A stretch of DNA of 12,885 nt from a virus (IMGVR_UViG_2657245081_000004); one strand, 5' to 3'. Shown: positions 1 to 10,841, counted from the first letter of the stretch. Translations and numbers: made by a program. Notes: generated by a model not told the origin, from the letters alone.

Positions 1-1392
1 TCAAGAATAGCCGCAAAATGTTGTCATTACAACAAGGCGGCTATATGACGCTCGCGCAGNNNNNNNNNNTCCAGACTCATAGCGGGATAAAAGCTGACCG
101 TTCGGATCAACCGCCAGTGCATCCCTGTAATGCTCCCGAACCCTCTGAGCTTTTTCGCTGACACTCATCGCTGTGAATNNNNNNNNNNACATCCATTTTC
201 CGTATACCTGAAATACCATTTGCGCATCTGCATGGCCCATCTGGTTTGCTATAAATGCCGGGTTAGCACCAGCTGTCAGCGACCAGCAGGCATAAGTATG
301 TCTCGACTGATATGATTTTCGATGGCGGAGTCCGGCACGTTTTATCGCTGCGTCCCACATCTGCCTTATTGAGTCAACGGTAAAATGGTCACCATAATTT
401 TTTACTCTCGCTGACACTTCAGGTTGAAAAACAAAGGTGCATTTATGTTTTTCTGTTCTGCCATACTCTCTGAGGTGAACATCAATGATATGCTCTTTGC
501 TCAGTCTCGTTAATGTCATCTGACTCCGGAGAGCGTCGATTGCTGGCTTAATAAGATGAATGACCCGATTGGTTCCCGCCTGTGTTTTTGGTACCGTGAA
601 ACGGTCTTTTGCTAAATTTCTCCTGATCATCATTGTTCCATTTTTCAGATCTATGTCCTCCCATCCAAGTGCACACAGCTCACCAGGGCGAACGCCAGTA
701 TAAACAGAAACACACCATAAATTTTTGGCTTGCTGATTTCTGCACGCATCGATAAGACGGATGAATTCCTCCCGCGAAAGAGGATCCGGAATGGTTCTTG
801 ATTCCTTTAATGGCGAGATCCCCTTAAACGGGTTATCTGCCAGGTAACCGTTATCAACACCAAACTGGAACACGGCGTTAAGATTTGTCATGTAATTATT
901 TACAGTTACAGCCGATCTCCCTGGTTGTGTAACAATATAGTTACTTTTGGGGATCTGGTATCCAGTCAGTAGCTCTTTACGAACCTCCAGTAATTTTTCT
1001 TTATTAATCGATGAGGCAAGATTTTTTTCACCGATTATGCTCAGGATATTTTTGATGACGGCACGGTATGTGTTGAGTGATGTTTTTGCGACTTCAGTTT
1101 CTTTCAGTGCCAGAAATTTTTCAGCCAGTTCTTTTATGGTTAAATCTTGTCGGGTCTCACCAAATTTTTCCAGATTGCGTGAGGAGGGAAACTGTTTTGC
1201 ATAGTCGAAAACACCAGTTTTTATTGCGTAACAAACAGAGGCGCGTAGCTCACCTGCAACGCGCCTGTTTTTTGCTGTGTCAGGAACCCCCAGGTTTTCC
1301 CTGACTCTTACGCCTTTATAAACAAACCAGATACGTAATTTCCCTCCATGGTTTTCCACGCCTGTCGGATATTTCATTTCAATTTCTCTCAT
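1..1392 (-). CDS. int: Phage integrase, tyrosine recombinase family (463 codons; two 10-nt N runs inside the 3' end)
   Basis: Translation has integrase catalytic-domain motifs (RHTYACWSL...MGHADAQMVFQVYGKW with the putative nucleophile Tyr). Frame is kept across both N runs and the stop is at 1-3. Alternative start at 1377 (MKYPTG...) has a slightly better purine-rich upstream region. Confidence 0.85.
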   Translation of the reverse strand: MREIEMKYPTGVENHGGKLRIWFVYKGVRVRENLGVPDTAKNRRVAGELRASVCYAIKTGVFDYAKQFPSSRNLEKFGETRQDLTIKELAEKFLALKETEVAKTSLNTYRAVIKNILSIIGEKNLASSINKEKLLEVRKELLTGYQIPKSNYIVTQPGRSAVTVNNYMTNLNAVFQFGVDNGYLADNPFKGISPLKESRTIPDPLSREEFIRLIDACRNQQAKNLWCVSVYTGVRPGELCALGWEDIDLKNGTMMIRRNLAKDRFTVPKTQAGTNRVIHLIKPAIDALRSQMTLTRLSKEHIIDVHLREYGRTEKHKCTFVFQPEVSARVKNYGDHFTVDSIRQMWDAAIKRAGLRHRKSYQSRHTYACWSLTAGANPAFIANQMGHADAQMVFQVYGKWMXXXXFTAMSVSEKAQRVREHYRDALAVDPNGQLLSRYESGXXXXARASYSRLVVMTTFCGYS

Positions 1393-4845: not shown

Positions 4846-4903
4846 AAAAAGGGCGGCAGAGCAGTCACGGAGTAAAACTGATACCGCCAAACGTCACCAG
4901 AAA
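4846..4903 (-). ncRNA. dicF: DicF small RNA (ftsZ-targeting) with its intrinsic terminator
   Basis: Minus-strand sequence UUUCUGGUGACGUUUGGCGGUAUCAGUUUUACUCCGUGACUGCUCUGCCGCCCUUUUU matches remembered DicF; ends in a GGCGG/CCGCC stem plus U5. Confidence 0.85.
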
Positions 4904-6069: not shown

Positions 6070-6708
6070 TTAAATATCTTGTTGAATTTTAAAGCATACG
6101 CCCAATATGCAAGATAGATCATCCAGCATAATTGAAGGGTAGCGAGGATTCGTGGGGACTAAAAGAATATCCGGCCCTTCTATCTCCAGTTTACGAATGA
6201 CAGGTGTTGTGGTCCCTTTGGGTAAGGCAAGGACAATATTTCCTGGTTGTACGGTTCGATCGGGATCAACAAAAACTGTTGAACCATTTGGGATGGAAAC
6301 TCCCCCACCAGATGTTGACATACTGTCACTCTCTAGAACAACTGCAAAGGTATTGACCGGGATTTCTCCGACAAGCTGCACACAAGAGGTTATTGAGGAA
6401 TTTTTCATATAATCACTCCAGCTTGCTGCCTGCTGAAGTGATAGTAGCGGAACCGTTTTTATCGGCGGTAAAGATAGATCAAGCGAATCACCTGTATTTA
6501 ACTCTCCTCCATTAAGAAGCCAATTTTCGTTTACTTTCAATATTTTTGCCAGTGAACTTATGTAACGCGAGGACGGCGCTCCTCCACCGTTCATCCATTG
6601 ACTTACGGAGCCTTTTGATGCGCCAGTGCCATTGACAAGGTCTTTGCCTTTCAGGTTTAGCGCATGCATACGTTGGGTTATGCGTTCAGATATAGTTTGC
6701 TTGCTCAT
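6070..6708 (-). CDS. Prophage repressor, lambda CI / LexA-like (N-terminal HTH, C-terminal S24 peptidase domain)
   Basis: N-terminus ...RMHALNLKGKDLVNGTGASKGSVSQWMNGGG is HTH-like; C-terminal half has S24-type Ser (DSMS) and Lys (VIRKLE) context; divergent from the cro-like gene. Confidence 0.85.
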   Translation of the reverse strand: MSKQTISERITQRMHALNLKGKDLVNGTGASKGSVSQWMNGGGAPSSRYISSLAKILKVNENWLLNGGELNTGDSLDLSLPPIKTVPLLSLQQAASWSDYMKNSSITSCVQLVGEIPVNTFAVVLESDSMSTSGGGVSIPNGSTVFVDPDRTVQPGNIVLALPKGTTTPVIRKLEIEGPDILLVPTNPRYPSIMLDDLSCILGVCFKIQQDI

Positions 6709-6725: not shown

Positions 6726-6799
6726 CAGATGGTTTTGTTTCTTGACTTTCTTTGGTTTTGATTATTAAACTTTTGACGTTCAGTTTTATGGAGCGACTC

Positions 6800-7030
6800 A
6801 TGAAAAAATCAGAAGTATTAGGCTATTTTGGCGGAGTTGTTAAAACAGCCGCAGCTCTAGGAACGTCAAAAACCACAGTCAGCATGTGGGGGGAAGAGGT
6901 TCCGTGGAAATGGGCGTTGCTAATTCAGGCAGTCACTGCCGGGGCGCTCAAATATGAGTTACACATACCGACGGTTGTCATTCCCGGTTCTGATCATAAT
7001 CCGCCTTCTAACCAAGGGGGGGATTCATGA
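6800..7030 (+). CDS. Cro-like regulator (YdaS/DicC family)
   Basis: MKKSEVLGYFGGVVKTAAALGTSKTTVSMWG... resembles DicC/YdaS N-termini from memory; GGAG 5 nt upstream of ATG 6800; stop overlaps the next gene start (ATGA). Confidence 0.75.
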   Translation: MKKSEVLGYFGGVVKTAAALGTSKTTVSMWGEEVPWKWALLIQAVTAGALKYELHIPTVVIPGSDHNPPSNQGGDS

Positions 7031-7452
7031 AAATCAAGCATGAACACATCCGCATGGCGATGAATGCCTGGGCGCATCCGGACGGCGAAAAAGTACCGGC
7101 TGCGAAAATTACCAAAGCGTATTTCGAGCTGGGAATGACGTTCCCGGAACTGTATGACGACAGCCATCCGGAAGCCCTGGCTCGCAATACCCAGAAAATT
7201 TTCCGCTGGGTAGAGAAAGACACCCCTGATGCAGTTGAAAAAATTCAGGCGTTGTTACCAGCGATCGAAAAGGCAATGCCACCTTTGCTGGTGGCCAGAA
7301 TGCGCAGCCACAGTTCAGCTTATTTTCGGGAGCTGGTGGAGACGCGGGAGCGACTGGTGAGAGACGCTGATGATTTTGTCGCAGTGGCAATCGCCGGTTT
7401 CAATCAGATGAACCGTGGTGGCCCGGCAGGAAATGCTGTGGCAGTACATTGA
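7027..7452 (+). CDS. CII-like regulator, YdaT family
   Basis: 141-aa protein starting MKIKHEHI..., recalled as YdaT-like; coupled to the cro-like gene at the CII position. Confidence 0.65.
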   Translation: MKIKHEHIRMAMNAWAHPDGEKVPAAKITKAYFELGMTFPELYDDSHPEALARNTQKIFRWVEKDTPDAVEKIQALLPAIEKAMPPLLVARMRSHSSAYFRELVETRERLVRDADDFVAVAIAGFNQMNRGGPAGNAVAVH

Positions 7453-7523
7453 CTGACAATAGCCATATCGAATCGCTTCCGGCAACTCGTGAGTAAAAAG
7501 ATTCGGTATCAGAAGAGGTGAGT

Positions 7524-8594
7524 ATGGCTAACGCCTGGCTCAGATTATGGCATGACATGCCAAATGACCCTAAGTGGCGAACAATTGCCAGGGTGTCAGG
7601 GCAGCCAATTGCAACAGTGATGGCAGTGTATATCCACCTCCTGGTGAGCGCGTCACGAAATGTCACGCGAGGTCACATTGATGTCACGACAGAAGATTTG
7701 GCAAGTGCGCTCGACGTGACAGAAGAGGTAATTGATTCAATTTTGCAGACGATGCAGGGGCGGGTACTTGATGGTGATTTAATCACTGGATGGGAAAAAC
7801 GCCAGGTGCTGAAAGAGGACAACGGCAATATTTCGCAAACCGCAAAATCTCCGGCAGAGCGCAAGAGGGCGCAGCGAGAGAGGGAAAGAAAGCGGGAACA
7901 AAATGGCGATTGTCACGGCGCGTCACGAAATGTCACGCACATGTCACGACGAGTCACGACAGATAAAGATACAGATAAAGATACAGATCAAGAAGATCAA
8001 AACACTATGGTCCATGGCGTAAAAAACGCCACGAACCAGGCAGGGGATGTTCAGACCGTCAATCCTGGTCAGCCAGCAGGCACGACACCGGAAGCCGATT
8101 CAGCGTATGCGCTGAAAGCCGATTCGGGCGCTGTGCAGCAGGTGATGACCCCAAGGCCGGAGCAATCACACCAACTGCAGCAGCCTGAAGCCGATTCCGC
8201 CATTCAGCGGGAAGCCGATCGGGTAGTCCCGGAAAACACCGGGCTGTCTGTGGGACGAGTGGATTATCCGGATGTGTTCGAACAGGTCTGGCGGGAGTAC
8301 CCGTTGCGTGCCGGAGCAAACCCGAAGAAATCCGCTTTCAGTGCCTGGAAGGCCAGATTACGCGAGGGGGTGCCACCAGAGGCCATGCTGGATGGCGTGA
8401 GGCGTTACGCAAGATACTTGGCGGCTACCGGGAAAACGGGAACGGAATTTGTTCAGCGAGCGACGACGTTTTTTGGACCGGACCGGAATTTTGAGAACCC
8501 CTGGTTGCTCCCGGTAAGCGGCACGAACAACCAGCGTTGTGTGAATCATATTTCTGAACCGGATACCGAAATTCCACCGGGCTTCAGGGGGTAA
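7524..8594 (+). CDS. Phage replication initiation protein (O-like N-terminal region; C-terminal domain resembling DnaT)
   Basis: GAGG 5 nt upstream of ATG 7524; iteron arrays lie inside the gene as in lambda O; C-terminal region (VDYPDVFEQVWREYPL...FVQRATTFFGPDRNF) recalled as DnaT-like. Confidence 0.65.
   Translation: MANAWLRLWHDMPNDPKWRTIARVSGQPIATVMAVYIHLLVSASRNVTRGHIDVTTEDLASALDVTEEVIDSILQTMQGRVLDGDLITGWEKRQVLKEDNGNISQTAKSPAERKRAQRERERKREQNGDCHGASRNVTHMSRRVTTDKDTDKDTDQEDQNTMVHGVKNATNQAGDVQTVNPGQPAGTTPEADSAYALKADSGAVQQVMTPRPEQSHQLQQPEADSAIQREADRVVPENTGLSVGRVDYPDVFEQVWREYPLRAGANPKKSAFSAWKARLREGVPPEAMLDGVRRYARYLAATGKTGTEFVQRATTFFGPDRNFENPWLLPVSGTNNQRCVNHISEPDTEIPPGFRG
7648..7688. repeat. 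Iteron cluster 1: four GTCACG/GTCAC repeats at about 10-bp spacing
   Basis: GTCACG at 7652, 7662, 7683 and GTCAC at 7672; contains the 21-mer GCGCGTCACGAAATGTCACGC that recurs exactly at 7918-7938. Confidence 0.7.
7912..8003. repeat. Iteron cluster 2 (five GTCACG repeats at 10-11 bp spacing) followed by an AT-rich tandem repeat; putative origin of replication
   Basis: GTCACG at 7912, 7922, 7932, 7943, 7953; then AGATAAAGATACAGATAAAGATACAGATCAAGAAGATCAA. Iterons plus an AT-rich tract inside the initiator gene is the lambda ori layout. Confidence 0.65.
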
Positions 8595-8634
8595 GTGTTG
8601 ATTTCTGGTCATGAGGTAATTTTCAGGAGGGCTT

Positions 8635-9057
8635 GTGGCAAAAGTTTTTACACAAGAAGAGCGAGAAAAAATTAAAGGGCAGGTTGTTGAACTCGTACGC
8701 CAGAGTGGGCGTGAGACGTTACGGCAACTGGAAGTCAAGACAGGTGCGACAAGATATCTGATGAGCGTTCTCGCAAGAGAGCTGGTTGCCAGCGGCGATG
8801 TATACAACTCCGGCTACGGGTTATTCCCCTCTGAACAGGCGCGTAAGGACTGGCAAAACGCCCGCAAAAAACTCTCGAGGGCAAAGGTGAAGAAACCTGC
8901 TGTGGTTGATCCGGACCTTATCTGGTCATCACCTGACGGAGAAATACGTCGCTACGACAGTCGCCTAAACATAATCTGTCGCGAGTGCCGGAAGAGTGAA
9001 GCTATGCAGCGTGTACTGGCTTTCTATCAGGGTAATTTTCAGGAGGCGGTACTGTGA
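8635..9057 (+). CDS. Hypothetical protein (140 aa), GTG start
   Basis: AGGAGG 4 nt upstream of GTG 8635; unrecognised; flanked by a 16-bp direct repeat. Confidence 0.55.
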   Translation: MAKVFTQEEREKIKGQVVELVRQSGRETLRQLEVKTGATRYLMSVLARELVASGDVYNSGYGLFPSEQARKDWQNARKKLSRAKVKKPAVVDPDLIWSSPDGEIRRYDSRLNIICRECRKSEAMQRVLAFYQGNFQEAVL

Positions 9058-10662: not shown

Positions 10663-10734
10663 GACTGCGGGTGCTTGAGGCTATCTGTCTCAGGCATGAA
10701 CACCAAAAGGCAGATAGAGAAAAGCCCCAGTTAA

Positions 10735-10800
10735 CATTACGCGTCCTGCAAGACGCTTAACATTAATCTGAGGCCATATCTATGCGACACATAGAGATTA
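10735..10800 (-). ncRNA. Putative Sok-like antisense RNA region (approximate bounds)
   Basis: Minus-strand promoter-like TTGACC (complement of 10821-10826), 16-nt spacer, GCTAAT, reading across the mok-like start; position matches hok/sok architecture. Ends not determinable. Confidence 0.35.
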
Positions 10801-10841
10801 GCCTCTTACGGACCGAAAGGTCAAGGAGAAGCAGGCTATGA
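10782..10841 (+). CDS. Short leader ORF (19 aa) ending in ATGA overlap with the hok start; mok-like coupling frame
   Basis: ATG 10782 with GAGG 8 nt upstream; stop TGA overlaps the hok ATG. Confidence 0.35.
   Translation: MRHIEISLLRTERSRRSRL

Follow-up and report, generated by a model that had tools for sequence, protein, structure and literature searches.

The question raised by this locus is whether a phage gene for replication initiation also contains the origin at which its product acts and, if it does, what the significance is of two separate arrays of one short repeat that are found within it. The gene lies in a stretch of viral DNA of 12,885 nucleotides (nt) (IMGVR_UViG_2657245081_000004; referred to here as the window, whose numbering is used unless gene coordinates are stated), which is part of a Rac/Qin-like lambdoid prophage of Escherichia coli. 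It is an open reading frame on the plus strand (7524..8594) and the NCBI name of its translated product is 'phage replisome organizer'; as the gene starts at the ATG at 7524, this protein is 356 amino acids long, which corrects the original prediction, an earlier annotation made from the sequence of the window. Based on the results described below, the gene probably contains a replication origin consisting of two parts, viz. a main part formed by the second repeat array (array 2), an AT-rich tract and a palindrome, and the first array (array 1), which would cooperate with it.

Repeat arrays within the initiator gene

The hexamer GTCACG is present 13 times in the window compared to 5.0 copies expected, a count that was reached in none of 200 shuffles, and 9 of the 13 copies fall within 7652-7958. 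The densest 60 base pairs (bp) hold five copies, against a maximum of three in 500 first-order Markov simulations. Array 1 (7648..7690, plus strand; 125-165 nt past the start codon) consists of four direct cores, viz. GTCACG at 7652, 7662 and 7683 and GTCACA at 7672, which are spaced at 10-11 bp and lie within codons 42-55 of the DNA-binding domain. An inverted core (7715..7720, minus strand, reading CGTGAC on the plus strand) is found 32 bp past the last direct copy and it encodes the residues DVT in the turn of the helix-turn-helix. Array 2 (7912..7958, plus strand; nt 389-435 of the gene), located in the linker-coding region, consists of five direct GTCACG copies at 7912, 7922, 7932, 7943 and 7953, with spacings of 10, 10, 11 and 10 bp. 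The cores fall in all three reading frames. An exact 21-mer, GCGCGTCACGAAATGTCACGC, is present at both 7648 and 7918, i.e. 270 bp (90 codons) apart and in frame, and each of its copies encodes ASRNVT; it is a case of a common two-core unit (GCGTCACGnAATGTCACG, encoding SRNVT). The near-identical phage Tritos, whose complete genome is 46 kb, has no cluster of GTCACG other than these two. The claims of the original prediction that GTCACG clusters at helical spacing occur inside the initiator gene, that they share an exact 21-bp duplicate and that both encode a repeated ASRNVT peptide are thus all confirmed, the first by shuffles and simulations and the last by translation.

The AT-rich tract and the palindrome

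Array 2 is immediately followed by an AT-rich and purine-rich tract (7959..8007; nt 436-484 of the gene), which is a putative DNA-unwinding element. As was also claimed earlier, it contains a tandem repeat: the 12-mer ACAGATAAAGAT, whose unit encodes TDKD, is repeated 2.9 times at 7959-7993. Two GATC sites are present in the tract (7986 and 7995), the G+C fraction drops to 0.37-0.38 over 7940-8019, and A strongly exceeds T. Adjoining the tract there is an imperfect 13-bp palindrome with a loop of five A residues, TGGTCCATGGCGT AAAAA ACGCCACGAACCA (8008..8038), a feature that was missing from the original prediction. A scan for promoters and terminators gave counts at the level of shuffled sequences and the palindrome was the sole useful item from it. 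No convincing DnaA box or IHF site was seen in 7900-8040, which was inspected by eye only and not searched with a tool.

These characteristics are not limited to the window. Across the family of homologous loci described below, the 50 nt past array 2 have a G+C fraction of 0.37 compared to 0.56 for the gene, with purines making up 0.70 of the coding strand. A short GC-rich palindrome is present 27-60 nt past the last iteron in many homologues, with a stem of at least 6 bp in 27 of 46; this enrichment is modest, as at the median a fraction of 0.2 of the background windows of each locus have a stem as long or longer, and the loci are related. In many homologues (L103, L121, L123, L136, L143, L158, L161 and L003), a perfect hairpin of 6-11 bp is found just past the AT tract, 27-45 nt beyond the last iteron (e.g. 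GAAGAACCTATCGGTTCTTC). The sequence of the stem varies from locus to locus, while similar loops recur (CTAACG, CTGACG and CTATCG).

Selection on the DNA sequence of array 1

Since both clusters share an exact 21-mer and encode ASRNVT, it could be argued that they have no function as DNA, and that they reflect either a recent duplication or a repeated peptide which the protein requires. The codons used in array 1 bear directly on this point. They were compared in 22 genes carrying GTCACG cores, whose N-terminal domains (N-domains) show a median nucleotide identity of 68%. Over codons 42-54, the conserved codons are GCG (91%), TCA (95%), GTC (100%), ACG (100%), GGT (100%), CAC (100%), GTC (100%) and ACG (95%), and V64, which lies in the inverted copy, is GTG in 100% of the 22 genes. 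In contrast, the codon for the spacer residue R48 is free (top codon 41%), and for conserved residues with four- and six-fold degeneracy outside the array the commonest codon accounts for only 27-57%. The mean top-codon fraction is 0.90 in array 1 versus 0.41 elsewhere (Mann-Whitney p 1.3e-4). Because the synonymous codons are frozen across array 1, selection is acting on the DNA. Further, the 10-11 bp period, which is not a multiple of 3, the location of cores in all three frames, and the freezing of silent sites at the cores only, are together not accounted for by a requirement for the peptide, and a peptide-level repeat was therefore rejected. The encoded peptides also differ between classes of homologues with different cores, where the DNA periodicity persists.

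In the AlphaFold2 model, array 1 corresponds to the end of a helix (residues 29-49) and a low-confidence segment (46-52), and the helix-turn-helix (56-63 and 67-78) and a short hairpin come after this segment. The model was built from a 20-sequence alignment, and only its N-domain secondary structure was used. A 7-residue (21-bp) insertion, TCHGVS[LR], adding two cores, is found in array 1 of four protein variants and an E. albertii locus (P0003, P0022, P0090, P0118 and L087, respectively; e.g. ...SRNVTTCHGVSLRGH..., which is seen in E. albertii and some E. coli), and in P0003 array 2 is expanded as well. The occurrence of natural inserts of this kind indicates that this segment of the protein tolerates use as a DNA site.

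The original prediction had also suggested a recent duplication as a source of the 21-mer, and this part of it does not hold. Both arrays are present in phages whose N-domains are only 37-70% identical, which led to the rejection of this reading. In 72 usable copies of the prophage from E. coli, the cores are almost invariant, whereas the exact 21-mer is broken in about 16 of the 72 by changes in the spacers (GCGCG to GCGAG and AAAT to ATAT). Both the two-array layout and the SRNVT-type unit are therefore ancient, and it is the 21-mer that breaks while the cores persist. Hence, we regard it as very improbable that the clusters are without a function in the DNA. The prophage copies also vary in other ways. 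The copy number of the 12-mer in the AT tract lies between 2.9 and 4.9 in E. coli prophages that are otherwise near-identical (L012, L019, L050 and L051). In one variant encoding a protein of 302 amino acids (P0020), a deletion takes out most of array 2 and the AT tract, and this variant is probably from a defective, origin-defective prophage copy.

Conservation and joint change of the arrays in homologues

Homologues were identified by tblastn with residues 1-162 as the query, followed by a scan of one genome per species, which gave 80 further loci. A scan of viral contigs yielded only copies that were 100% identical over the N-domain, and these, adding no diversity, were used for the study of polymorphism. 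The relatives with about 70% amino acid identity are Aeromonas phage pAEv1818 and D3-like phages of Pseudomonas (phage phi1), and more distant relatives found by tblastn include a spring-water podovirus, Ralstonia phages and cyanophages. Both pAEv1818 and phi1 retain the two arrays with GTCACG cores as well as the AT tract, and the number of array-2 copies varies (3, 4 or 5). The SRNVT unit of the GCGTCACGnAATGTCACG type is present in both arrays of the Pseudomonas phage, in array 2 of the Aeromonas phage and, with substitutions, in array 1 of the latter. An array 2 of three to six copies is present at the same place, with a lineage-specific core, in 46 homologous loci. The inverted copy is likewise found at the same place (nt 188 of the gene) in many homologues with GTCACG cores, and CGTTGC copies occur in the equivalent region of a Ralstonia phage. 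The comparison with homologous prophages that the original prediction had proposed as a check is thus in its favor, with the AT tract and the two arrays being retained in homologues from Aeromonas, Pseudomonas and numerous further hosts.

The core itself differs among the homologues, and in the same manner in the two arrays. For example, GCAACG is the core of both arrays in Ralstonia phage Firinga, and CGAACGC that of both arrays in the spring-water phage. Based on 47 loci with at least three array-2 copies at 9-12 bp spacing, the core classes are GTCACG (23 loci), GAACGC (14), GTGACG (4), GTAACG (3) and GCAACG (3). When the cores of each class were counted over nt 90-260 of the gene (the array-1 zone), the mean number of own-class cores was 3.48 for GTCACG, 1.79 for GAACGC, 4.25 for GTGACG, 1.33 for GTAACG and 4.67 for GCAACG, compared to means of at most 0.75 for the cores of other classes, and the true matching of classes scored the best among 120 permutations, although these statistics are inflated by the shared ancestry of the loci. 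The diagonal form of this matrix indicates that the two arrays have switched sequence together several times. The earlier suggestion that both clusters are arrays bound by the initiator is supported by this joint change of cores and by the frozen synonymous codons of array 1.

Association of the arrays with the N-terminal domain

An alternative possibility is that the repeats are bound by some other host or phage factor, e.g. one acting in transcription control, partition or packaging, and that they are in the initiator gene by chance. The distribution of the arrays is of much relevance in this regard. The same N-domain, accompanied by both arrays, is joined to at least three different C-terminal domains, and the downstream genes also vary, viz. 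a DnaC-like gene in Aeromonas, one for a large 'P' protein in Pseudomonas, DnaB in Ralstonia and none of these here. Conversely, the C-terminal domain (82% nucleotide identity) and tail are shared by the Shigella phage 75/02 Stx, in which the N-domain is unrelated and GTCACG is present in zero copies across 3.5 kb of sequence. If we judge from these sequences, the arrays belong to the N-terminal domain and not to the C-terminal domain or the neighboring genes. The arrays thus travel with the N-domain across hosts, C-terminal domains and neighbor genes, and they are gone when it is swapped. Moreover, the core classes do not follow host taxonomy, the hosts including Gamma-, Beta- and Alphaproteobacteria as well as others, and the repeats along with the AT tract and palindrome have the layout of an origin. 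On the other hand, that the encoded initiator is the protein binding the arrays is something that we infer from a single line of evidence, its linkage with the N-domain, and in one locus (L156, from a Ferrovibrio metagenome-assembled genome) GTCACG cores occur alongside an N-domain that has diverged, with only about 41% identity to that of E. coli. Taken together, binding by an unrelated factor appears improbable.

The initiator gene of phage 75/02 Stx has repeats of its own. The sequence GGGGCTTC is present twice, 11 bp apart, in its N-domain codons (L168, 1080-1098), and an inverted copy, GAAGCCCC, is found at 1332-1339 with GAGCCCC 12 bp later, just before a purine-rich tract and the same palindrome. 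There are 3 matches to this motif compared to 0.21 expected, and this phage may represent the same two-site design in another family of initiators. In the window, the N-domain/origin module meets the shared C-terminal module at about 8000-8030 (...QNTMVHGVK...), and the junction peptide is conserved as NT[LM]VHGEK (P0046, P0087, P0102 and L168 were compared). As the AT tract and the palindrome end right at this junction, the origin itself may serve as a recombination breakpoint for the exchange of modules.

The protein ends in a tail, ...QRCVNHISEPDTEIPPGFRG (residues 334-356; 8523..8591, plus strand), which resembles the C-terminal tail of E. coli DnaT. Its last 20-24 residues are near-identical to the DnaT tail (NCBIfam DnaT, E-value 0.0015; PDB chains 6aep, 2ru8 and 9zbt). 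The function of this tail in DnaT itself is unsettled (PMC13377028). In the Aeromonas homologue the last residues are ...KPPGFN, and an identical tail is found in phage 75/02 Stx, which also has a DnaC-like gene. Profile searches of the proteins in the window revealed no gene for a helicase loader or helicase, and no P, DnaC or DnaB gene is annotated in the whole of the Tritos genome. In view of this lack of a loader or helicase gene, it is suggested that the tail plugs into the restart or loading machinery of the host, and from its sequence the gene looks like a single-gene replication module with a tail borrowed from a host protein.

The proposed origin and the possible role of array 1

In the mechanism that we favor, array 2, the AT tract and the palindrome would form an iteron origin of the lambda/SPP1 type. 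Monomers of the initiator N-domain would bind the cores head-to-tail on one face of the DNA, and the bound initiators would oligomerize and deform the DNA, so that the AT tract opens. The helicase machinery of the host would then be brought in by the C-terminal domain with its DnaT-like tail, since phages of this type have no loader or helicase gene themselves. The binding of monomers, opening of the tract and recruitment of helicase are proposed here by analogy with lambda O and SPP1 G38P. Array 1, comprising the cores at 7652-7688 and the inverted copy at 7715-7720, would be a second set of binding sites about 230-250 bp upstream, and initiator bound to it would join the complex on array 2 by looping or wrapping and aid in firing. 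Of the roles that can be envisaged for array 1, this cooperative contribution, in register with the origin complex, is most likely. It is a tentative possibility that array 1 is in fact required in cis for firing by looping or wrapping with the main array.

The distance between the two arrays is of interest in this context. The gap from the last array-1 copy to the first array-2 copy is 189-340 bp across the loci, and 19 of the 21 distinct gaps deviate from a multiple of 10 by no more than 2 bp (Rayleigh R of 0.63 for a period of 10.0-10.1; simulated p 8e-4, 8 of 10,000 random sets being as good), a statistic inflated by shared ancestry, as gaps within a class that are one repeat unit apart are not independent. 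Coding limits insertions and deletions to multiples of 3 only, and it therefore does not explain a register of about 10 bp. This register is suggestive of the two arrays being one interrupted lattice, as in a single wrapped or looped complex. However, since the best period is 10.0-10.1 and not the 10.5 of relaxed B-DNA, the arrays will be on the same face only if the DNA is overwound or wrapped.

The main alternative interpretation of these results is that array 2 is the origin and that array 1 acts as a negative control element and not as an activator. It could be an autoregulatory operator or roadblock, a site for titration or handcuffing like P1 incA or F incC, or a barrier giving unidirectional replication or a switch to rolling-circle replication, as proposed for SPP1 oriR. 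Array 1 is inside the transcription unit of the initiator, shortly past its start codon, and no AT-rich tract adjoins it. It is also absent in seven lineages that keep array 2, as could be expected of an accessory regulator. Precedents are provided by the second, non-origin iteron arrays of the P1 and F plasmids. For SPP1 also, there is a precedent for a second array that is not the origin (PMC6316719). However, the register between the arrays is better explained by one shared complex, a lytic phage has little obvious need for limits on copy number, and no promoter-like site above the shuffle expectation is present near array 1. A control function of array 1 is considered rather unlikely.

The proposal that array 1 cooperates with array 2 in one origin has several observations weighing against it. 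Seven of the 47 loci (L140, L143, L147, L155, L156, L159 and L163) carry array 2 while their array-1 zone holds at most one exact core; they possess a clear array 2 and AT tract, and the array-1 stretch of their proteins is equal in length. As these loci keep array 2 alone, array 1 is dispensable in some lineages. No clear determinant among the N-domain residues that track the core class, beyond shared ancestry, was apparent in the alignment. The AlphaFold2 model is poor overall (predicted local distance difference test (pLDDT) score 49), although residues 11-80 score about 65-82 apart from a dip at array 1, and PDB sequence searches found no relative of the N-domain, matching the DnaT tail only. 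Lastly, no paper on the origin of this family was found in our search of the literature, which extended to oriJ of Rac but in which most subscription journals and a 2006 review of phage replication modules were not covered.

Comparison with known replication systems

Iterons with an AT-rich element inside the initiator gene are known for lambda O, for gene 18 of phages P22 and L, and for SPP1 gene 38 (PMC8022706, PMC5737612, PMC6316719), and in the lambda type, as here, specificity resides in a single exchangeable module made up of the N-domain and the iterons (PMC8022706). The locus described here resembles lambda O and ori-lambda in that the origin is mid-gene, within the linker that separates the N-terminal DNA-binding domain from the C-terminal recruitment domain, with the iterons followed inside the initiator gene by an AT-rich tract and then a palindrome (here 7959-8007 and 8008-8038). 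Strand asymmetry of the AT-rich region and a palindrome to the right of the iterons are also characteristics of ori-lambda. However, the protein has no match to Pfam Phage_rep_O even at E-values up to 10, and its PHROG matches are to other initiator families. The repeats here are direct, at 10-11 bp, with a 6-bp core and no internal dyad, whereas lambda has about four dyad sites of about 19 bp. No P-type partner gene is present downstream, the next gene being DUF977/Ren-like, and an array in the codons for the DNA-binding domain has no counterpart in lambda. The lambda-type layout claimed in the original prediction is therefore correct in regard to array 2, the AT tract and the palindrome, but the protein is not a lambda O homologue, the iteron format is different and array 1 is extra. 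The six 11-bp direct repeats of phage L are close to the format seen here.

With SPP1 G38P, the protein shares its name and a weak similarity (in Phage_rep_org_N, below threshold, and in a DnaD-like C-terminal region); membership in the SPP1 replisome-organizer family is plausible. Within gene 38, the 'AB boxes' of oriL are followed by an AT-rich unwinding element (PMC5737612, PMC6316719), the repeats being at about nt 362-410 and the AT repeats at nt 418-449, almost as far from the start codon as the repeats and the tract here (389-435 and 436-484). In SPP1, G38P has a further array of binding sites at another place in the genome (PMC5737612, PMC6316719). However, the similarity is below the threshold (16.3 versus 23.3 bits; BLASTP to G38P, E-value 0.39), the second SPP1 array (oriR) is about 13 kb away and intergenic with an AT tract of its own, and SPP1 encodes its own loader and helicase (G39P and G40P), which are lacking here. 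No second array of the same sequence was found in the N-terminal part of SPP1 gene 38. A distant array comparable to oriR was also considered here, and it was rejected because there are only two clusters of the core in the complete Tritos genome.

The use by one initiator of two separate arrays of short direct repeats is known from P4 (ori/crr), P1 (incC/incA), F (incB/incC) and the origins of Staphylococcus aureus pathogenicity islands (SaPI). In these systems one array is at the site of opening, and the second is either needed in cis (P4 crr) or is a control locus (P1 and F). In these replicons, however, the second array is non-coding and is hundreds to thousands of bp away, whereas here it overlaps the codons for the DNA-binding domain of the initiator, at a distance of 190-340 bp and in a conserved 10-bp register.

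Significance of the two-array arrangement

An iteron origin embedded in its initiator gene is of a well-known kind, and array 2 alone is a new and uncharacterized member of it. What is unusual is the presence of an array inside the DNA-binding-domain codons, the covariation of the two arrays over at least five specificity classes, and the conserved 10-bp register. If array 1 is needed in cis, then the specificity and both sets of sites will be locked in a unit of about 450 bp, which recombination can hardly split; this would explain at least five switches of recognition sequence with function retained, and, as hinted by phage 75/02 Stx, in-gene phage origins may generally follow the two-site design. 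As a coding sequence constrained by a DNA site for, presumably, its own product, the dual-coded array is a clean natural case, and it has undergone several independent switches of specificity. An origin with a known recognition core could be put to use in mapping prophage induction, in building origin-decoy ('Per'-type) resistance and in predicting which lambdoid phages are compatible in replication. The single-gene module with its DnaT-like tail offers a route to asking how a phage initiator recruits host DnaB/DnaC without a loader of its own.

Other features of the protein and the prophage

The initiator matches phrog_3729 ('replication initiation protein') from end to end (E-value 1e-255). 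No Pfam match was obtained at the default threshold; the match to PF09681 (Phage_rep_org_N) is weak (E-value 0.0099, 16.3 bits against a cut-off of 23.3), though it covers 119 of 121 profile positions, and that to TIGR01714 is also weak (E-value 0.016). The protein consists of a predicted helix-turn-helix-like N-terminal DNA-binding domain (residues ~1-100), a basic helix (110-126, from the AlphaFold2 secondary structure), a disordered acidic linker (128-246), and a helical C-terminal domain followed by the DnaT-like tail.

Within the window, the genes and RNAs on the side preceding the initiator gene are an integrase (1-1392, minus strand), the DicF small RNA (4851-4902, minus strand, from Rfam), a CI-like repressor (6070-6708, minus strand), Cro (6752-7030) and a YdaT/CII-like gene (7027-7452); a RecE-like exonuclease is also present in the window. 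After the initiator gene come the DUF977/Ren-like gene (8635-9057) and, further along, the sok antitoxin RNA of a hok/sok module (10669-10840, plus strand, from Rfam); the window also has a DUF968 gene. Of 5426 complete E. coli genomes, 1647 carry at least 80% of the initiator gene. Isolated phages (Tritos, Evi, 204576 and several vB_Eco phages) show 97-99% identity to the region 7400-8700, and in them the protein goes under the names 'replisome organiser', 'DNA replication protein O' or 'primosomal protein I'. The sok and DicF RNAs are usual cargo of Qin/Rac-like prophages; a HokD toxin is annotated in Tritos, the right arm of which is arranged differently.

A further repeat, AGCCGAT, occurs four times in the part of the gene encoding the disordered linker (8093, 8117, 8189 and 8213, spanning 8093-8220), with spacings of 24, 72 and 24 bp and in a single reading frame, its copies encoding (P)EADS, KADS or EADR. 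As the spacing is in multiples of 3, this repeat appears to be of significance at the level of the peptide, perhaps as a short linear motif, and not as a DNA site. Phage 75/02 Stx shares this repeat, and the E. coli variants differ by deletions in this region, giving forms of 324 to 374 amino acids.

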